32,000 nt of DNA, taken from assembly GCA_028282465.1 (NCBI GenBank), contig JANQHX010000021.1, positions 2,437 to 34,436 on the forward strand, given 5' to 3'. Every line of letters starts with the position of its first letter. Positions within the stretch are counted from its first letter, which is position 1. Position numbers and translations under genes: made by a program. Source of the stretch: Gynuella sp. (GTDB lineage: Bacteria; Pseudomonadota; Gammaproteobacteria; Pseudomonadales; Natronospirillaceae). The notes beneath the pieces were generated by a model. The model was not told the DNA's origin. It did not search any database and was given only the letters and a program-made list of their open reading frames with translations. Below, one piece after another: positions 2,463-31,158 of this stretch.

Positions 2463-4268
2463 ATGAAAAAATTATATACCCCTGCAGCCTTTGTTTTATT
2501 AGCTGTAGCTTTTATTTTATTTAACCTGCTGAACAACACGTTCTTTAAAAATGCTCGTGTGGATTTTACCGAGGGCTCCATTTATACGCTTTCTGAAGGC
2601 ACTAAGAATCTGTTGAGCAACTTAGACGAACCTATCAATTTGTATTTCTTTTTCTCGAATACGGCTACCAGAGAAATTCCTCAAATTCGTAGTTATGCCT
2701 CTAGGGTGCAGTCTCTATTAGAAGAATATGAGTTGCGCAGTAACGGCAAAATTAAATTGCAAATCATCGACCCAGAACCTTTCTCGGAAGCGGAAGATCA
2801 AGCCGATGCCTATGGCTTGCAGGGCGTAAGAATGAGTAATTTTGGTGACACCGTCTATTTTGGATTGGCAGGCACTAACACTCTGGATGATCAAGGTGTG
2901 TTGCCTTTCTTCCAGGCCCAAAAAGAAATTCATTTAGAGTATGACATCAGCCAATTAATTTATAAGTTGGCCAACCCAGAGCCTGCAAAAATTGCGATCT
3001 ATACTGGCCTACCTATTTCAGGCGAACGTGATTTTCGTAGCCAGCAAACGGAAGCGCCTTGGCAAACCTATATCCAACTGACAAACAACTACGATACAAC
3101 TATTTTGTCGCCAGATTTTTCAGATTTTGACCCTGAAAGTGATTTGTTGTTAATGATTCAACCGCCAAAAATAAGGCCTGATATCGCTTTCGCCATTGAC
3201 CAATACGTGATGCAAGGTGGACATGTATTGGTGTTTGTTGATCCAGTTGTACAAGGGGGATCGATGGGCGGTGATTTCCGCAACCTTGAAATGTTAGAAC
3301 TCATGGCGCACTGGGGCATTCAATTTGATTCCGGTAGCTTGATTGCAGACGCTAACCAAGCGTTAAGAGTGGGTTCTGCTCAAGGCGGTTCTGTTCGCCA
3401 CCTTGCAGTACTAAGTGTATTGAGCGATCAAATTGATCAAGAAGACGTTGCGACATCTAACCTAGAAACCATTAATGTCGCCATGGCGGGTTATGTAAAA
3501 CCTACTGAAGAAGCATCCACGACTTTCACATCCATTATCACCACCACTGAATTGTCTGGTTTGTTGCCAGCCGCCATGATGCAGTTTATTCAAGGCCCCC
3601 AAGAGTTAGCCGCTCAATTTCAACCAGACCCCGATAAATACACCATAGGTGCACGGGTGAGCGGGCCTTTAAAAACCATGTTCCCTGACCGTGAAGAAGC
3701 TATTCAAGAAACAGATAACGTTAACATCGTGGTGTTTTCTGATGTAGACATGCTACAAGACTGGTTATGGATTCGTACTCAGCAAATTGCAGGGCAAACC
3801 ATCGCTCAGCCTTGGTCAGATAACGGCTCATTGTTTATTAATACTGTAGACAATCTTATTGGCAGTTCAGATCTGATTTCACTGCGTAGCCGTGGTCAGT
3901 TTGAGCGACCCTTTGAAGTTGTGAACAAGCTTCGAGCTTCTGCGGAAGACCAATACCGGGCCAGTGAGCAATCCTTAATGCAGCAACTTCAAGAAGCGGA
4001 ACAGCGCCTTCAAGCACTGGAGTCACAAAAAACCGAAGGCTCTGAGTTAGTGCTTACCGACGAGCAACGTCAGGCAATTTTAGACTTCCAAGAGCAGCGA
4101 ATCGAAATTCGTAAAGAGTTAAGAGATGTGCGCCACCAATTGGATAAAGACATCGAATCCTTAGGAACCCGTATTAAATTACTCAATATAGCCGTGTTCC
4201 CAGTGATTCTGACCCTACTTGTATTCGCGGCAATTTGGCTGCGTAGAAAAACCAGAGTTTCAGTATAA
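2463..4268 (+). CDS. GldG-like ABC transporter auxiliary protein
   Basis: 601 aa with an N-terminal TM anchor, a large extracytoplasmic body, a C-terminal coiled-coil region (QQLQEAEQRLQALE) and a terminal TM. The N-terminal motif VDFTEGSIYTLSEGT is characteristic of GldG-family proteins that follow ABC-2 pairs. Confidence 0.7.
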   Translation: MKKLYTPAAFVLLAVAFILFNLLNNTFFKNARVDFTEGSIYTLSEGTKNLLSNLDEPINLYFFFSNTATREIPQIRSYASRVQSLLEEYELRSNGKIKLQIIDPEPFSEAEDQADAYGLQGVRMSNFGDTVYFGLAGTNTLDDQGVLPFFQAQKEIHLEYDISQLIYKLANPEPAKIAIYTGLPISGERDFRSQQTEAPWQTYIQLTNNYDTTILSPDFSDFDPESDLLLMIQPPKIRPDIAFAIDQYVMQGGHVLVFVDPVVQGGSMGGDFRNLEMLELMAHWGIQFDSGSLIADANQALRVGSAQGGSVRHLAVLSVLSDQIDQEDVATSNLETINVAMAGYVKPTEEASTTFTSIITTTELSGLLPAAMMQFIQGPQELAAQFQPDPDKYTIGARVSGPLKTMFPDREEAIQETDNVNIVVFSDVDMLQDWLWIRTQQIAGQTIAQPWSDNGSLFINTVDNLIGSSDLISLRSRGQFERPFEVVNKLRASAEDQYRASEQSLMQQLQEAEQRLQALESQKTEGSELVLTDEQRQAILDFQEQRIEIRKELRDVRHQLDKDIESLGTRIKLLNIAVFPVILTLLVFAAIWLRRKTRVSV

Positions 4269-20952: not shown

Positions 20953-21750
20953 TTAAGATTGCTCGCTTGCCATGTCGTAGTAGGCTTTGGGGTTAATTAA
21001 TGCGTTAAGTCGGTCTTGTATGGTGAGGGCGTCGGCCTTTTCCATCATGAATACAAACCCGTCACACCAGAGTTGATGCCGTAAATATTCCCCTTCCATT
21101 TTTTTAAAAATATGAACGGCGGCAGGTCTGAAAATCAACTGAGCCAGCATGACGCCATAGAGAGTGGTGATTAAGGCCAACGCAAGACCTTTGCCTAAGG
21201 CAGTTATGTCCCCATCCATGTTATCTAACATGATGATTAAGCCGATGATAGTACCAACCATACCAAAGGCCGGTGAGTAACTAGCCATGGTGTGTAACAC
21301 TTTTGCCGATTGAGTTCTTCGAGAAAAATCCGCTTCAATGCGGTTAGATATTAAATAGCGAATCTCTTTAGAATCATAGCCCGCAGTTATTTGTTCTAAA
21401 CAATAAGTTAGAAACTCGTTCTTTTTTTCTTTGTTGGTAAGGGAATTTGAAACCGCTGTGAGACCTTGTTGTCGATAGATTTGGCTCCATTCAATAAAAC
21501 GTTTGATGTCTGACCTCAGGGTGCTGTGGTTGTCGCGCTCTTCACTGAAAGTTCGAAAAAGAGCAAAAATAGCGGTGACAAACTCCTTCATGTTGTAACT
21601 AATAATGGTCGCCGCTGCTGTTCCACCCAACACCATAGCAACACTGGTGGGGCTAATAAAAATAATGAAGTTATCGGTATTCGAGGTGATCGCATAAAAG
21701 AATAATGCGATGGCACCTATGATGCCGATGAGTGTGCTAATAAATGTCAT
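20953..21750 (-). CDS. MotA/PomA-like proton/sodium channel stator subunit
   Basis: 265 aa with four TM segments in the MotA/PomA arrangement (two N-terminal, a cytoplasmic loop, two C-terminal). It carries YSPAFGMVGTIIGLI and ALITTLYGVMLAQLIF. It has an ATGA overlap with the upstream gene. Confidence 0.85.
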   Translation of the reverse strand: MTFISTLIGIIGAIALFFYAITSNTDNFIIFISPTSVAMVLGGTAAATIISYNMKEFVTAIFALFRTFSEERDNHSTLRSDIKRFIEWSQIYRQQGLTAVSNSLTNKEKKNEFLTYCLEQITAGYDSKEIRYLISNRIEADFSRRTQSAKVLHTMASYSPAFGMVGTIIGLIIMLDNMDGDITALGKGLALALITTLYGVMLAQLIFRPAAVHIFKKMEGEYLRHQLWCDGFVFMMEKADALTIQDRLNALINPKAYYDMASEQS

Positions 21751-24443: not shown

Positions 24444-25543
24444 TAGAATCGATACCCCAAAGTAATGTCGTAACTTGCCCCGCCAAATTCTGAAGATTCT
24501 TCTAGGCCATCTACTTCTTTCCATTCCACTTCTTGTTCAGGTAAATAAATAACACCTAAATCAATGTAGCCGTTTCTTGTAAAAGGAAATTCGATTCCGT
24601 ATTTGTAGACGAGAGATTGTTGTTCTTTAAAAAATGCCTGGCCCAGTTCCAAATACATGAGTGTTGGCACCCATTGCTCCAACGCGGATATATTAACTTC
24701 CACTCGGCCTTCAATAACAAAGCCCAGCATGTCGAAATAATCTGTTTGGGCAAGATTTGAAAAAGTTTCGAAACCAAGACCATAACTAATGTCTTCGTTG
24801 AGTTCTGAATGCTCTCTGCGTCTAATACCGAATGTGGTCACGCTTGATAATTGACGGTCAGAAACGCCAGTGCCTTCTCGTTCTGCACTGAATCCCCATG
24901 CTCCTACAAATAATTCCCAGTCGACTCGGTCAAACTCTTCTTCATTCAGTTCTTCGTCCCGTTTAGCTAATTCGATTGGGTTTGTTTTTCTAGCGTATTG
25001 CCGAGTCCAAACAACATGGTTATCTGTGGCATCAACCAGTCTCATGTCGACAGTAAATTTTTCTTCATACACATTTGCGCTCCACATAAAAAACCCATCC
25101 ACTTGAAGCTTTCTGGCTAGGTTGCGCATGTCTTTGTTACTTTCTATCGCTTGATTAATACTGAGTTGATCGTTTTGAAGTTTTACTTGAATCAATTTGC
25201 ATTCAACACACTCGGTGACCAAAAACTTTTCGGTATCAATCAACTTTTTAATGATCATGCCTTCGATCATGGTTTCTGTTGACTTAGGTATTTTTTTATA
25301 AAGTCTGTCTTCTGTGTGATACAAGGCTACTCGCATCACAGGTATTTCCAAATCCGCAAGCTCTTGCACAGGTAGTGTGTTTTCATCTTCCATGAGTTCT
25401 GCAAACCCGTTGTAGTAACGAGCCTGTGTTTCCACCAAATTACTGGTCTGCCCAGTTTCAGCCTGAACATAGTTCAAAGTAGAAAATAAAATTGTTACCC
25501 ATGTGGCAAAAAATTGCCGCTCGAGACTGGCTTCAGCCTGCAT
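24443..25543 (-). CDS. Putative secreted/outer-membrane protein (first gene of the stator-rotor operon)
   Basis: The N-terminal hydrophobic segment ends in VQA-E. The C-terminal half has alternating aromatic/hydrophilic patterns and ends GYRF, the terminal Phe typical of beta-barrel OMPs. I recognise no family. Confidence 0.45.
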   Translation of the reverse strand: MQAEASLERQFFATWVTILFSTLNYVQAETGQTSNLVETQARYYNGFAELMEDENTLPVQELADLEIPVMRVALYHTEDRLYKKIPKSTETMIEGMIIKKLIDTEKFLVTECVECKLIQVKLQNDQLSINQAIESNKDMRNLARKLQVDGFFMWSANVYEEKFTVDMRLVDATDNHVVWTRQYARKTNPIELAKRDEELNEEEFDRVDWELFVGAWGFSAEREGTGVSDRQLSSVTTFGIRRREHSELNEDISYGLGFETFSNLAQTDYFDMLGFVIEGRVEVNISALEQWVPTLMYLELGQAFFKEQQSLVYKYGIEFPFTRNGYIDLGVIYLPEQEVEWKEVDGLEESSEFGGASYDITLGYRF

Positions 25544-25699
25544 TGATTGATTCCATATAAAATTTGTGACCTGTTTTTACAGAATAGAACAGAGCTTGAG
25601 GAATGCATGAAAAATGCGTTTTGAAACCAACGAGAATTTCGAAAAGTTTAAAGTTGTAATATCACTGGTGGACTGCACAGGATGTACTAGTTTCATGTT

Positions 25700-26488
25700 A
25701 TGCAGATATTACCTAAAAACTCTGTCTACCGATCTTTAGGGCAGCACCCCTTGATATTGTTGGATAGACCAGAGCATCAAAAACATGACGCCTATGTGTT
25801 TCTTGTTGATAACATCTCCAGAGCCTTGGAAAACCATCCCGTGATCAATGGAGATGCGCTCCCTAAATGGCTGAGTGACGAAAATTCCACCGGGCAACAG
25901 GTGGAGTACTTGATTTTGCAAATGGTCATCTTCTTCAACTTACTTTATTTGTCTGAGAAAACGGGCCGTAAAGCAGAATCGGATAAGTTGTTTATGGATT
26001 TGGCGCACCTGACCTCTGTTCCTGAAAGTCATAACCTATCTGTGTTGAGAGGCTTTTTTCAGTTTGTTCATGAATACGTGAGGTCGTTAAGAATTCCCTT
26101 TGGCCCACTATTAAGGTCAGTGCCTGTGGATCCAATTACGGATTTTGTGAGTTCAGAACTGACTCATCGGCTGTTAAATGGTGCCCCAAGTAGCAGATTG
26201 GCATCGCGCTTTGCACTAGAGAGTTGGTTGGTTTCAGGTTTTTGGGATGAGTTAGCTTCGTCTTTAATGGCTTATAAAAATCAGCTTGATCTGAATTTAA
26301 TGCCGATTAGCTATTTTTCTAGCCCAACTGGCTCTTTTACCCCACCTTGTATCCCACTGGTAGCCGAGATTTACTTTCAATGTGGCATTCATGAAGATCG
26401 GTTTTTGGCGGATGTGGTGTCGACATTGGATTGCATTGATGATTTTTGGAGTTCAATAGGGCGAAAGACACTTTATGCACAGAAATGA
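25700..26488 (+). CDS. Hypothetical protein
   Basis: 262-aa ORF transcribed divergently from the stator-rotor operon. It appears mostly helical. I recognise no family. Confidence 0.45.
   Translation: MQILPKNSVYRSLGQHPLILLDRPEHQKHDAYVFLVDNISRALENHPVINGDALPKWLSDENSTGQQVEYLILQMVIFFNLLYLSEKTGRKAESDKLFMDLAHLTSVPESHNLSVLRGFFQFVHEYVRSLRIPFGPLLRSVPVDPITDFVSSELTHRLLNGAPSSRLASRFALESWLVSGFWDELASSLMAYKNQLDLNLMPISYFSSPTGSFTPPCIPLVAEIYFQCGIHEDRFLADVVSTLDCIDDFWSSIGRKTLYAQK
26473..26481 (+). promoter_or_regulatory. DnaA box (TTATGCACA)
   Basis: Perfect match to the consensus TTATNCACA. It is followed by GAAA, as are the two TTATCCACA boxes downstream. Confidence 0.55.
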
Positions 26489-26608
26489 ATCATATTAAAT
26501 TTATACGTCAAATTTTTTTCATTTTTATATTTTATCACTATTGACTTTGCTAACTCTTTGAAAAATAAAGAAAAAATAGCTTGTCTAATTTTTAATCAAT
26601 TTGATAAC
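26489..26608. other. Strongly A+T-rich tract (candidate DNA-unwinding element)
   Basis: By hand count there are 21 G/C in 120 nt (about 82% A+T). It contains several T-runs (AAATTTTTTTCATTTTTATATTTTAT, TCTAATTTTTAAT). It lies immediately left of the DnaA-box modules. Confidence 0.4.
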
Positions 26609-26647
26609 CCCCCCGAATTTTGGCAATTAGATGGCAGAATTCAGGAA

Positions 26648-26682
26648 CTATTCACAATTTTATCCACAGAAAAAGTGGATAA
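26648..26682. promoter_or_regulatory. Three-box DnaA-binding module 1
   Basis: CTATTCACA (26648-26656, 8/9), 3 nt, TTATCCACA (26660-26668, perfect), 5 nt, then AGTGGATAA (26674-26682), which is the inverted box TTATCCACT (8/9). Confidence 0.65.
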
Positions 26683-26689
26683 GTATCTC

Positions 26690-26725
26690 AACCCCAGTAA
26701 AGAAGGGGGGTTCAAGTTTTTTTTT
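26690..26725 (+). terminator. Terminator-like hairpin with T-run
   Basis: AACCCC (26690-26695) pairs with GGGGTT (26707-26712). CAAG and then TTTTTTTTT (26717-26725) follow. The stem is short and the loop is 11 nt. Confidence 0.35.
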
Positions 26726-26961
26726 ACCAAAATTTGCAAAATTTAAGGCTATAAACTATAAGCAAAAATCAATTTGAAGGAATGCCTTTACAAAGTTATT
26801 CAATCCTGGCATACCAAATTTACATACCCCAGGTTTTACATTCATTTAAGCTAATAAATAAGCATAACTTATTGATCAGCAAGCACTTTTTTCAATGACT
26901 CTTTTTTATCCTATTTAATAAAACAGGCTTATTTGCTGGGTTTAGAGGCTTTTTACCTGGG

Positions 26962-26996
26962 CTATTCACAGAATTATCCACAGAAACTGTGAATAA
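26962..26996. promoter_or_regulatory. Three-box DnaA-binding module 2
   Basis: CTATTCACA (26962-26970), 3 nt, TTATCCACA (26974-26982, perfect), 5 nt, then TGTGAATAA (26988-26996), which is the inverted TTATTCACA (perfect). The geometry is identical to module 1, and the start is 314 bp from the start of module 1. Confidence 0.7.
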
Positions 26997-27105
26997 GTTA
27001 TATTTTTGTAGCTTTACGTAACACATACTTTACTCAGTTAATTATCTGCTATATCCGGGTGGTAATAAAATAAACCATGCGTGTTACAGACTTGACATGG
27101 TGTTA

Positions 27106-28683
27106 CTATAATTCCCAGATTCCTCCTTGGTTGGTGCAGGCTGTGGATAATCTATTTTGTGCTTCATTAATGGTTTCATTATTTGGCCGCAACGGGTTCT
27201 GATAATGGAAAATTCTGGTTTCTGTGATGTCCTGGGTGCAGGTTCCTATAAAAGTACCGGTTTCATTTGTGTCCTCATTTATCATCTGCCAGCTATTTCG
27301 ACATCTAGCCTCTAGCCACTCCAAATCATCTTGTGTTTCTCCTAACAGTAAGTTTTCTCGACCATCGCATTCACCGGGTGGAATCGAAAGTGCCCCTCCA
27401 TCCATGGTTTCGATACAGATATTCAAAGAATTTTGATCAAACAAGGAAACCACAGGTTGGCAGCTACCCGCTGCGCCATAAGTGGCTGGAACGGCTGTGT
27501 CGTCGCCTCTTCTTATGATGATTTCTCTGCCCCCTTGACCAATAAGCCCGTTAATATCCGTTGCTTGTACCACTACAAACCAGGTGCCTACGGCAGTGAG
27601 GGTAAAGGTTTGATTAGTTAATCCAGCTAATTCAAGTGCTTCCCGAGTCCAGGTTTGAATAACACCGTTAGGAGAGATGAGTTGTGCTGTCCATCCGGTG
27701 ATTTCCAAACTTTCTTGATGGCTGGCTGAAATGGCAATAGAAACATTTGACGGGGATTGAAACTGGTTGATCACTGGGGTTTCTGTCACGGTAACGTTCA
27801 CTGAGATAATTGGAGTTGCGGGTTGCAATGTGTCTAGTACTAGCGTGGCTAATACCGCTTCGGCTTCTAGGGCGTCTATGGTGTTGGTAGTAAGTGAACC
27901 TAAAAAATTGTCTTGATCACTGGTCGCGAGTTCAGCCATGGAAAAACTCGCGACTTCTACGCCATTCACATCCGTAACACTGATCAGTCCGGTATTCGTG
28001 TCAATGCTGAAATCAAGAAGCTCTATCATGCCATCAGTGTTAATAGGATTTTCTGATGGGTTGGCATCATATTCTTCGGTGAAGGGGTTTATCGGGTTTC
28101 CGGATGTATCAACCGGCCAAAGACTTCCCAGTGCTGCCGATAAATTATTAATGGCTGGTGCGACAGCGCTGTGATCATAACCTGTTTGCAAAGCGCTTAA
28201 ACAAGTGGCAGTAACAAAACAGGTTTCTGGGGTGGTGGAATACTCGCTGTTGAGATAAGCCCGAGTGATCAGGTCTGTCACTTCATTAATATTACTGCTT
28301 GAAGTGGTTGCGCCAGTTTCTGAACTAAACAGTGAATAGTAAGTGGTTTGCAATCCATCGGGAGCAATAAATTCACCCCTGACTAAGCCGCTGGTGACGG
28401 GGTTGTTCATGAGGTTGTATTCGCCTTGGGCATTGGCGGTTATACAATATTCAGTGGTGCCATCAGACGTGCAGACATCTGCAAATGCAGCGGCTTGTCC
28501 ATAAGCGACGACGCCAGAGAGAGTTACAGAATCAGTCACCTGATTAGTGTCATCGCCATCTGTACCTGGAGCACTGCTTCCGCCACCACCTCCTGAGCTA
28601 CAAGCAGACGTGCTTAAAATGATTAAAGACAAAACCAGCAGATGAAGAAAAGACGTCGGTTCAATGTGTCTGTTTGTAAACAT
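27106..28683 (-). CDS. Hypothetical large lipoprotein
   Basis: Signal peptide with lipobox STSAC, followed by a Gly/Ser linker (SSGGGGGSSAPGTDGDD). The 525-aa protein is Thr/Asn/Gly-rich and looks likely beta-rich. I recognise no family. Confidence 0.6.
   Translation of the reverse strand: MFTNRHIEPTSFLHLLVLSLIILSTSACSSGGGGGSSAPGTDGDDTNQVTDSVTLSGVVAYGQAAAFADVCTSDGTTEYCITANAQGEYNLMNNPVTSGLVRGEFIAPDGLQTTYYSLFSSETGATTSSSNINEVTDLITRAYLNSEYSTTPETCFVTATCLSALQTGYDHSAVAPAINNLSAALGSLWPVDTSGNPINPFTEEYDANPSENPINTDGMIELLDFSIDTNTGLISVTDVNGVEVASFSMAELATSDQDNFLGSLTTNTIDALEAEAVLATLVLDTLQPATPIISVNVTVTETPVINQFQSPSNVSIAISASHQESLEITGWTAQLISPNGVIQTWTREALELAGLTNQTFTLTAVGTWFVVVQATDINGLIGQGGREIIIRRGDDTAVPATYGAAGSCQPVVSLFDQNSLNICIETMDGGALSIPPGECDGRENLLLGETQDDLEWLEARCRNSWQMINEDTNETGTFIGTCTQDITETRIFHYQNPLRPNNETINEAQNRLSTACTNQGGIWEL
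27142..27150 (-). promoter_or_regulatory. DnaA box (TGTGGATAA on the plus strand, TTATCCACA on the minus strand)
   Basis: Perfect consensus box located inside the 3' end of the lipoprotein gene. Confidence 0.5.
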
Positions 28684-28882
28684 AGTTATTCACAGTCTGA
28701 TCATTCAGGATAAATAACTACTTCAACCCTCATGCCAGTGTGTAATATTGTATGATTCTCTGGGTAATATTTATAAGTATTTGTTTTATATGGATATTTT
28801 TAGCCAAAATTGGTTTATTCAGGGTCTGTAAAATAGGTCAAATTCATGACGGAGCGCAAAAATACCGTCATTTTCCCCAGAC

Positions 28883-28891
28883 TTATTCACA
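28883..28891 (+). promoter_or_regulatory. DnaA box (TTATTCACA)
   Basis: Perfect match to TTATNCACA. It lies in the divergent intergenic region between 28683 and 29036. Confidence 0.4.
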
Positions 28892-28902
28892 GGATCATTC
28901 AT

Positions 28903-28942
28903 GAAATTCATTTTTGATCCAGTTCGAATTTCAATGAATTTC
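28903..28942. promoter_or_regulatory. 10-bp inverted repeat (candidate operator) upstream of the 29036 gene
   Basis: GAAATTCATT (28903-28912) and its exact reverse complement AATGAATTTC (28933-28942) are separated by 20 nt. Confidence 0.3.
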
Positions 28943-29035
28943 TCTTAAAACAGTGGTTAAGAGCCCACTTTTGAAATACTTTCTTTGCCATACTGGAATG
29001 GTCTAACACCTTTGCCTAACTAGAGGACGGCCCGA

Positions 29036-30511
29036 ATGGAAGGTCAATTTTTTAATTGGATGCAAGCGAATCCCACAGTGTTTTTTGGAACATTGTTACT
29101 GGTGATGTTGGCTTTGTATTTCTCGAAAAATGGTTTCTACGCAGCTTTTAGGAAGATAGCTTTGCTGCTGTCTGCCAGTTTAAGGCTGCAGTCTAGAGCA
29201 CTCATCACAATGACAGAGCAAATGAAGCAGCGTAACCGTGAAGTGTTATTGGAAATGGGACAGGCTCAAAAAGAACGAGATATTGAGCGTGAGTTTTACA
29301 GGGTAAATGCCATTGTGGATAGAGATTTAAGTGGCTACCCAGAATTACAAAAAGTCATATCAGAACACATCACCGCCATCGAAGAAGATTATCAAAAAAC
29401 TGGTGAATCACCGCCTCCTTCACCAGATTGGGTAGAAGCTGTGGAGGCGGTCGCCAACTTGAAAGAAGCTCATAAGGGCAATCCGGTGATCGCTAAAATA
29501 TTATCTGACTTGCATGAGTCGGTTATTGGTCAGCACAAACAGGCCTTGGGTGATTATCGGGAAGGCATAGCACAACGACATAGGCTGTTGCACTCCATGA
29601 TGCCCCATTGGCGCAAACTGAATAACGCAGTCGGTAGTGTTGGTAACAGTATTAAAGGTTTGTTGAAACACTCAGCAAAACTTGATGTTCATATGGATCA
29701 GTATGAACAAATACGACAGGGTTCTGAACAAGCTGAAAGGGCGTTACGTTCCTCTGCCAGTATAGATTTTCTATTTTCTGTACTGATTATTTTGTTAGCT
29801 ACCTGGGGCGCATTCTTCAACTTTCAGTTAATAGCTTTGCCTATGTCAGAAATGGTTGGAGGTACGTCGAGTAAATTTAATTTATTTGGACAAGTGGTTT
29901 CAGTTGCTCAGGTTGCTGGTGCATTTATTGTCATTCTGGAAGTGATATTAGGGGTTTTCCTAATGGAATGTTTGCACATTACTCGAATGTTTCCTGCACT
30001 TTCGAGCCTGGATGATCGCATTCGAAAAAGAATGATTTGGGCGCTGTTTATTTTCATGTTCTTCCTGGCGAGTATTGAGTCGGGTTTGGCATTTATGAGA
30101 GATCAAATCGCTGCTGCAGACGAAGCGTTAAAATTTTCACTTGGCTTGGGTGGTGAAGCGCCTGTGGCCAGCGACATCAGTCAAACCATTCCGTTAGCTG
30201 CAGCCATGATGCTGGGTTTCATGTTGCCATTTGCTTTAATGTTTGTAGCGATACCTATTGAAACTTTGTTTTTAACAGGAAGGGTCGTACTGTCGTCGAT
30301 ACTTGTTCAAGTATTACATCTGGCAGCGATACTGTTACGTTTGCTTGCCAATGCTATTAAAAATCTCGTGGAGTTCATTATTGCCGTTTATGACATTTTC
30401 ATATTTATTCCTTTATGGATAGAAGGGGCTGTGAAGTCTTTTCGGGAAGACTCAGCTAGACGCTCCGAAACATCATCGGTTTCTGAATCCAGTACAGAAT
30501 TGAGGCCATAA
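29036..30511 (+). CDS. Hypothetical polytopic inner-membrane protein
   Basis: 491 aa with an N-terminal TM, a charged helical region of about 220 aa, and then several long hydrophobic segments. The downstream gene starts 3 nt after its stop. Confidence 0.55.
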   Translation: MEGQFFNWMQANPTVFFGTLLLVMLALYFSKNGFYAAFRKIALLLSASLRLQSRALITMTEQMKQRNREVLLEMGQAQKERDIEREFYRVNAIVDRDLSGYPELQKVISEHITAIEEDYQKTGESPPPSPDWVEAVEAVANLKEAHKGNPVIAKILSDLHESVIGQHKQALGDYREGIAQRHRLLHSMMPHWRKLNNAVGSVGNSIKGLLKHSAKLDVHMDQYEQIRQGSEQAERALRSSASIDFLFSVLIILLATWGAFFNFQLIALPMSEMVGGTSSKFNLFGQVVSVAQVAGAFIVILEVILGVFLMECLHITRMFPALSSLDDRIRKRMIWALFIFMFFLASIESGLAFMRDQIAAADEALKFSLGLGGEAPVASDISQTIPLAAAMMLGFMLPFALMFVAIPIETLFLTGRVVLSSILVQVLHLAAILLRLLANAIKNLVEFIIAVYDIFIFIPLWIEGAVKSFREDSARRSETSSVSESSTELRP

Positions 30512-30513
30512 AA

Positions 30514-31158
30514 ATGAGAAAGGGATTTTTAATCAGCTTACTATTTTTATTAAGTGCTTGTGCCAGTAATGAAAACTACAGTACAGCTGTTTACTTATTG
30601 TTGGATACTTCAGGCACCTATACTAAAGAACTTAGAAAAGCCCAAAACATTATCAATTATTATTTGGCAACTTTGGAAGCCGGCGACAGTTTTGCGGTTG
30701 CTCGAATCGACAGTGGCAGTTTTAGTGAGCGGGATATAATTGCCAAGGTTAAGTTTGATGACAAGCCTTCAAAGTCTAATGTTCAGAAGCGAGAGTTTGC
30801 CGAAATAATAGATAACTTTGTGTCAACCGTTGAAAGCGCATCCTATACCGATATTTCTGGGGGTTTGCTTCAAGCGCAAGAATACATCACTGAAACTGGG
30901 GCAGGGTATAAGCACATTTTAATTTATTCTGATTTGAAAGAAGAATTGCCTGACGGATTCAATCGAGATTTTGATCTTGAGCTGGATGGCTTTACGGTCA
31001 CTGCGTTAAACGTAACAAAGCTCAGAACAGATAATGTTGATCCGACTGAATACAAATCTAGATTGCTGTATTGGCAAGATCGCATCGAAAAAGCGGGGGG
31101 CTCCTGGCGTATGTTAAACGACCTCGAACGGGATGATGCGTTAGAGCTACCTAAGTAA
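30514..31158 (+). CDS. vWA-like domain lipoprotein
   Basis: Lipobox LLSAC. MIDAS-like elements occur in the canonical order: VYLLLDTSGT (DxSxS-type), YTDISGGL (Thr), and ILIYSDL (Asp). Confidence 0.65.
   Translation: MRKGFLISLLFLLSACASNENYSTAVYLLLDTSGTYTKELRKAQNIINYYLATLEAGDSFAVARIDSGSFSERDIIAKVKFDDKPSKSNVQKREFAEIIDNFVSTVESASYTDISGGLLQAQEYITETGAGYKHILIYSDLKEELPDGFNRDFDLELDGFTVTALNVTKLRTDNVDPTEYKSRLLYWQDRIEKAGGSWRMLNDLERDDALELPK

Follow-up and report, generated by a model that had tools for sequence, protein, structure and literature searches.

Tandem DnaA-box triads in a Gynuella chromosome form a probable DARS-type DnaA-reactivating locus

The DNA considered here, referred to throughout as the window, is a 32,000-nucleotide stretch of Gynuella sp. 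(assembly GCA_028282465.1, contig JANQHX010000021.1, denoted C42 in what follows, positions 2437-34436; the genome comprises 4.48 Mb in 110 contigs). Within it we focus on a non-coding spacer of 617 bp (26489..27105, 70% A+T) that lies between two convergent open reading frames (ORFs), one of 262 amino acids on the left (25700..26488, plus strand) and one encoding a 525-residue protein of unknown function on the right (27106..28683, minus strand). The spacer contains two compact triads of binding sites (boxes) for DnaA, both read on the minus strand, at 26648..26682 (unit 1) and 26962..26996 (unit 2). We consider it probable, from the arrangement of these boxes, that the spacer is a chromosomal locus of the DnaA-reactivating sequence (DARS) type, in which two units are arranged in tandem at a distance of 314 bp.

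With a perfect DnaA box defined as TTATNCACA, the window holds seven, at 26473(+), 26660(+), 26974(+), 26988(-), 27142(-), 28686(+) and 28883(+), as compared with an expectation of 1.76 from shuffled sequences; in 100 shuffles this number was never attained. The first five, together with three 8/9 matches at 26648, 26674(-) and 26962, fall within 678 bp (26473-27150), where the genomic total of 175 perfect boxes in 4.48 Mb predicts 0.027 (Poisson P(>=5) ~1e-10). Nowhere else in the genome is the density of perfect boxes as high, and the sole other cluster of at least three lies directly upstream of dnaA. The 8/9 matches by themselves are not enriched across the window (27 vs 34.9 expected); the signal of the cluster resides in the perfect boxes and in their fixed geometry. 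An original prediction, made from the letters of the window, had listed the boxes of 26473-27150 along with two 35-bp modules, an adjoining A+T-rich tract and a single GATC in 26490-27100. Every one of these boxes is correct in position and sequence, although the perfect box at 28686 had been overlooked; the modules are indeed a direct repeat, with 84% identity over 37 nt at a distance of 314 bp; the tract is 80% A+T over 26490-26610, with a peak of 82.5% over 120 nt; and the one GATC is found at 26874. Two perfect boxes of the cluster stand outside the triads. The first, TTATGCACA (26473..26481, plus strand), overlaps the final codons of the 262-residue ORF, is oriented as boxes II and III of the units and lies at +201 from box I of unit 1, while the second, TTATCCACA (27142..27150, minus strand), lies within the 3' end of the 525-residue ORF, oriented as box I and 154 bp upstream of unit 2.

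Written as the minus strand, unit 1 has the sequence TTATCCACT-ttttc-TGTGGATAA-aat-TGTGAATAG, with box I at 26682-26674, box II at 26668-26660 and box III at 26656-26648, and unit 2 is TTATTCACA-gtttc-TGTGGATAA-ttc-TGTGAATAG, with the corresponding boxes at 26996-26988, 26982-26974 and 26970-26962; in each case 5 nt separate boxes I and II and 3 nt separate boxes II and III. Box order, orientation and spacing are identical to those in the cores of both E. coli K-12 sites, DARS1 of the bioD-uvrB spacer (L017:1608), TTATCCACT-attcc-TGTGGATAA-cca-TGTGTATTA, and DARS2 of the rppH-mutH (rppH/ygdT-mutH) spacer (L018:2636), TTATTCACC-ttttc-TGTGGATAG-agt-TGTGAAGAA. Box I of unit 1 and box II are letter-identical to their DARS1 counterparts. 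The DARS2 core was placed using the published mismatches, the PciI site beside the site for IHF and the order core, IHF-binding site (IBS), Fis-binding site (FBS), a mapping that rests on the text of the papers without their figures. As described in the literature, a DARS core consists of three boxes with a spacing common to DARS1 and DARS2 (PMC5742627), box I being opposite in direction to boxes II and III and separated from box II by a 5-bp gap (PMC5742627; PMC6868365), across which two DnaA protomers meet head-to-head via Gln208 with support from box III via Leu290 (PMC5742627; PMC6868365; PMC11724364). Both window units agree with this published definition (PMC5742627), including the fixed 5-bp I-II and 3-bp II-III spacings, and they occupy a non-coding chromosomal site apart from oriC. 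They are the only triads in the genome with five or fewer mismatches, carrying 1 and 2 mismatches as compared with 2 for E. coli DARS1 and 3 for the DARS2 core. The original prediction had likened the box orientations to the two halves of E. coli oriC; the likeness is better explained by box I of each core, which faces the opposite way from boxes II and III. A DARS-like site with three-box cores had been among its alternatives, and it is this suggestion that gains support from the E. coli core geometry and from the order-wide family of triads described below.

The 35-nt pattern of the triad was searched, with 3 mismatches allowed, in 201 genomes sampled across the order (at least 58 families). 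It matches 150 of the 201, mostly with one to three copies each, and 35 of the 38 genomes of the family to which the window belongs, the copies in other genomes adjoining unrelated genes. The reversed pattern produced 1 match in the same 201 genomes, and when the I-II spacer of the pattern was set to 6 nt, matches were obtained in only 2 of 101. The 5-nt gap is thus under sharp constraint, a finding that points to a specific architecture of protein on the DNA rather than to mere clustering of boxes.

A second layer of conservation emerges when 62 non-identical related triads are aligned by box I and profiled for accessory sites. Matches to the IHF consensus WATCAANNNNTTR (at most 1 mismatch, forward orientation) number 44 in the 62 triads at +110..+139, as compared with 0-4 per 10-bp bin elsewhere. 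For the Fis consensus GNNYANNNNNTRNNC there are 19 perfect matches at +80..+89, compared with 0-1 in most other bins and a maximum of 4, and the count rises to 37 over a background of ~7 per bin when 1 mismatch is permitted. Both window units have such an arm. Unit 1 contains the Fis-consensus 15-mer GATTAAAAATTAGAC (26583..26597, +85), a perfect match, and the IHF-consensus-like 13-mer TTTCAAAGAGTTA (26551..26563, minus strand, +119), with 1 mismatch and preceded by a T-rich tract; unit 2 contains the Fis-like 15-mer GGATAAAAAAGAGTC (26897..26911, +85) and the IHF-like 13-mer GATCAATAAGTTA (26865..26877, minus strand, +119), each with 1 mismatch, the latter including the only GATC of the spacer. 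This conserved Fis/IHF arm accounts for the A+T-rich tract, which could otherwise be read as an unwinding element.

Other features were noted in these modules. Many modules have a further motif, AAAGTCAATA / AAATGTCAAC, after the IHF-like site at approximately +133..+146 (window 26536-26549; L029, L030, L067, L017), with a weaker version, AAATGCAATGG, in E. coli DARS1, and it may represent a second, overlapping IHF half-site similar to that in the double IBS1-2 of DARS2. In many relatives (L012, L021, L032-L035, L040, L065, L067) the Fis-like element at +80..+99 contains a GATC (…TTGATCA…), though the window genome has no SeqA. An inverted repeat in the spacer of unit 1 (z = -2.5) was considered as a family feature and rejected, the mean z over +35..+84 being -0.59 as compared with about -0.3 for controls.

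The proteins on which a DARS site depends are encoded in the genome. DnaA is 74.6% identical to the E. coli protein over domains III-IV, with Gln208, Leu290, Phe239, Lys243, Arg285 and the box-reading residues all conserved (Gln245 aligning with E. coli Gln208 and Leu327 with Leu290); its nearest named relative is from a metagenome-assembled genome of an uncultured Oceanospirillaceae (63% identity). The residues required for the head-to-head (Gln208) and head-to-tail (Leu290) contacts are therefore available, as is Hda, scoring 229 bits against a curated cut-off of 194.8. The genome further has genes for Fis (62% identity) and for IHF alpha and IHF beta, so that the arm that produces ADP-DnaA and both accessory proteins are present. 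A mechanism can be modelled on E. coli DARS. ADP-DnaA would be generated after initiation by Hda and the clamp, in the regulatory DnaA inactivation pathway (RIDA), and would bind box II and recruit two further protomers; those on boxes I and II would meet head-to-head via Gln245, the pair being stabilized head-to-tail via Leu327 by the protomer on box III. ADP would then be released, and the departing apo-DnaA would rebind ATP and restore initiation potential at oriC, which would lie beside dnaA on another contig than the DARS-type locus, with bending by IHF and Fis tuning the timing of site activity. Binding of DnaA, IHF and Fis, and nucleotide exchange at the locus, are thus predictions of the model.

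It is useful to consider how far the likeness to the E. coli sites extends beyond the cores. The IHF and Fis sites of DARS2 are on the box III side, as are the candidate sites of the window units. For the DARS2 subtype, which has binding sites for both proteins flanking the core, the window units are candidates: they have Fis and IHF consensus matches at +85 and +119, and the genome has genes for the proteins, but the site order is unlike that of E. coli. DARS2 has an extra consensus box (box V) at +211 from the core, to be compared with the box at +201 here, which is in the opposite orientation. At a distance of 316 bp from its core DARS2 has another triad, with an IHF-like 13-mer at +119, the corresponding values for the window units being 314 bp and +119, but it is degenerate (6 mismatches) whereas both window triads are near consensus. 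In DARS1 a T-rich tract followed by TTAACTGGTTA at approximately +111..+133 is in register with the T-rich and IHF-like element of the window, although DARS1 functions without IHF or Fis according to the literature, its own IHF-like match is poor (2 mismatches) and it is a single unit of ~101 bp, unlike the two units found here. The flanking genes differ from those of DARS2, and the E. coli neighborhood that orthology to either site would imply, bioD-uvrB or rppH-mutH, is not the one found here, where the orphan ORF and the gene for the 525-residue protein flank the spacer. It would seem, then, that the locus shares its core with known DARS and differs from them in the order of accessory sites, in having two intact units and in lineage.

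Several considerations weigh against a DARS function. For the window triads, as for any non-enteric triad, function is predicted from geometry alone. The Fis and IHF sites are defined solely by agreement with a consensus, and the genomes behind their enrichment counts are not independent of each other; moreover, the accessory order here is core, Fis-like, IHF-like, whereas in E. coli DARS2 as mapped it is core, IHF, Fis, with the experimentally defined IHF site, beside a single PciI site, at +109 from L018:2636. Synteny is lacking as well, both with DARS1 and DARS2 and with the triads in other genera of the family. The boxes are also closer to consensus than those of the DARS2 core, which could favor retention of DnaA (titration) over its release. 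Finally, the triad layout is not exclusive to DARS, because a TrfA-type plasmid oriV has it next to its iterons, and it is thus a platform for DnaA assembly that serves in more than a single context. A blastn search of E. coli chromosomes gave no DARS match, and 116 of the 134 E. coli places that were matched are on plasmids; the best of them, and the only one inspected, is the oriV triad of pJJ1886_4 (NC_022650.1, ~21116-21150; L176:1500-1534), ATAATCACA-gac-TTATCCACA-gatat-TGTGAATAA. The layout of box, 3 nt, box, 5 nt, inverted box in this IncP-like origin is identical to that of the window units, but there it is flanked by iterons (ctacctcaaatgtcaa) and trfA and has a role in plasmid initiation, whereas at the window locus neither iterons nor a rep gene is present.

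The concern over retention leads to the possibility that the locus lowers initiation potential instead of raising it, either as a DnaA sink, with near-consensus boxes holding the protein, or as a datA-like site that together with IHF promotes hydrolysis of the ATP bound to DnaA. Such a role would suit a cluster of eight boxes, of which five are perfect, within 680 bp, as well as the better match of the boxes to consensus than in the DARS2 core, and IHF-type sites are present as they are at E. coli datA, the site of DDAH (hydrolysis of DnaA-bound ATP that depends on datA), which is likewise a non-coding DnaA-box cluster away from oriC. However, datA has no box I-5-box II-3-box III triad, its best candidate having 6 mismatches and effectively no box I, and its outcome, ATP hydrolysis, is opposite to that of DARS. 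Conversely, the arrangement of datA, where the essential boxes 2, 3 and 7 surround one IHF site, is not what is found in the window, whose units have the head-to-head triad with the sharply conserved 5-nt gap, the feature tied to ADP release (PMC6868365). The datA-like alternative of the original prediction is in this sense a poor fit, and we regard inactivation or titration as an unlikely explanation of the locus, albeit one to be taken seriously.

Control of transcription by DnaA is a further explanation, in which the boxes would act on the convergent genes as roadblocks or terminators, or would serve as operators of the genes encoding the 525-residue protein and a 491-residue neighbor. At the stop codon of the 262-residue ORF there is an overlapping box, and two additional perfect boxes, at 28686 and 28883, are located in the divergent promoter gap of the 525- and 491-residue genes. 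The two units, on the other hand, lie between the 3' ends of convergent ORFs in a spacer where promoter-like sites are not enriched (4 vs 7.2 expected), family homologues of the 525-residue gene have no triads, and triads elsewhere adjoin unrelated genes. The suggestion of DnaA-regulated promoters, also part of the original prediction, is accordingly unlikely for the units while possible for the boxes at 28686 and 28883; for the locus as a whole we hold transcriptional control to be quite improbable.

The original prediction had placed an origin-like locus foremost and had looked to a GC-skew switch point as a check. The gene dnaA is on another contig, C55, divergent from rnpA-rpmH, with gidA on C77, and no linkage of the window locus to dnaA, rpmH or gidA was found. 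The cumulative GC skew of C55 (120 kb) decreases over 34 kb before increasing over 84 kb, with a V-shaped minimum at the 650-bp rpmH-dnaA gap, which itself has 3 perfect and 3 8/9 boxes and a tract of 74-79% A+T. More precisely, the gap (C55:35389-36037 of the window genome, G000; L001:348-996) has its perfect boxes at 35771, 35833 and 35965 and its 8/9 boxes at 35655, 35797 and 35865; the stretches 35551-35700 and 35801-35950 are A+T-rich, and GATC occurs twice. On C42 the cumulative skew rises on either side of the cluster with no reversal, although the contig is only 35 kb, so that this is not absolute. The switch point, rnpA-rpmH, dnaA, a second box cluster and an A+T-rich tract are thus all found on C55, and oriC of this genome is probably the rpmH-dnaA gap. 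The gap is of the Pseudomonas type, in which several consensus boxes lie beside an A+T-rich tract as they do at the window locus, but it is separate from that locus and has no DARS triad (best candidate 6 mismatches). Homologous triads in five relatives with complete genomes all lie 0.18-2.35 Mb from dnaA. The scarcity of GATC, which had been cited against a classical oriC, carries no weight and is uninformative either way, because no SeqA was found in the genome. On the basis of skew, gene linkage and triad positions in the complete relatives the origin reading was rejected, and the case that the locus is not oriC is strong but not absolute. That it is a chromosomal origin nevertheless, or a second or cryptic one able to fire or replicate autonomously, is highly improbable, since the densest DnaA-box cluster of the genome, the adjoining 80% A+T tract and a slight local dip in cumulative skew just to its left are set against the minimum on C55, the rising skew on C42, the Fis/IHF arm that accounts for the tract, the lack of iterons or an initiator gene at the locus and the distances from dnaA in relatives. 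There is a caution here for annotation, in that the densest DnaA-box cluster of a genome need not be its origin.

Returning to the DARS-type interpretation, the tandem arrangement of the units deserves comment. Two species of a sister genus, g9 (G015, G008), have two triads 311 bp apart, in which the Fis-like and IHF-like sites are at +85/+86 and +119/+121, respectively, and an additional inverted box, at +205, faces the same way as the window's extra box at +201; the pair adjoins VanZ-like and MGS-like genes. In E. coli DARS2 the two triads are 316 bp apart (L018:2636, L018:2952), the second occupying L018:2952-2986 with its IHF-like 13-mer at 3071-3083 (+119) and falling in the dispensable half, as the published deletions are mapped here. 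In other relatives the usual arrangement is a single unit, or a pair separated by 144 or 343 bp, and a count over 251 Gammaproteobacteria, made without control ranges, gave box II pairs at distances of 298-319 bp in 5 other genomes and no sharp peak. The recurrence of a tandem distance near 314 bp is suggestive but not established. One might speculate that a two-unit design, with cores ~311-316 bp (about 30 helical turns) apart and each with its own IHF site at +119, is an ancient cooperative architecture, that the second triad of DARS2 is a decayed second active unit and that DARS-type recharging under Fis/IHF control is a general feature of this Pseudomonadales/Oceanospirillales-type order, but taken as a whole we find this proposal distinctly doubtful.

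In E. coli, DARS sites regenerate ATP-DnaA and in this way determine when the chromosome is replicated. Homologues reported in the searchable literature come only from Gammaproteobacteria close to E. coli (Enterobacterales, V. cholerae and Shewanella; PMC4245941; PMC8682772; PMC6090056), and nothing was found there on other orders. The host of the window is a marine Oceanospirillales-type bacterium, from a group in which no DARS sites have been described in print, and the module, with its identical core geometry, very strict spacing and conserved Fis- and IHF-type sites, is found in about three quarters of the genomes sampled from its order, a very large gammaproteobacterial one distinct from those with published DARS. 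Judged by sequence, this suggests that the cycle by which DnaA is recharged from its ADP to its ATP form is far more widespread than the literature states. The 0.7-kb fragment with its two intact units is well defined and suited to existing E. coli assays.

There remain the neighbors of the spacer. The 262-residue ORF has no Pfam or NCBIfam match and no homologue among 37 genomes of the family, and its codon-usage score is 0.13, as compared with 0.25-0.38 for neighboring genes; it may not be a real gene, in which case the spacer would extend to 25544. The 525-residue protein has single-copy homologues (~30% identity) in 30 of the 37 family genomes, no triad being found within 1.5 kb of any of them, and a single match (47%) in a large protein database. 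Neither it nor the proteins encoded at 29036-30511(+) and 30514-31158(+) has a significant match to a Pfam, NCBIfam or PHROGs family, and a search of the flanking unknown proteins for a Rep or initiator protein in these three collections found none. Three further candidates were rejected: a structured RNA (no Rfam match in 25000-30000 at E<=1), a terminator or hairpin at 26690-26727, where a C-rich/G-rich stem with a T-run folds no better than shuffled sequences, and conserved synteny, given that the 525-residue homologues have no triads nearby, the 262-residue ORF is an orphan and the g9 pair has other neighbors. The two outlying perfect boxes, at 28686-28694 and 28883-28891 (both plus strand), occur in the 350-bp divergent gap between the 525- and 491-residue genes, the former only 3 nt upstream of the 525-residue start codon; the genomic density predicts ~0.08 perfect boxes per 2 kb, and these two may be extra DnaA sites or may mark DnaA-regulated promoters.

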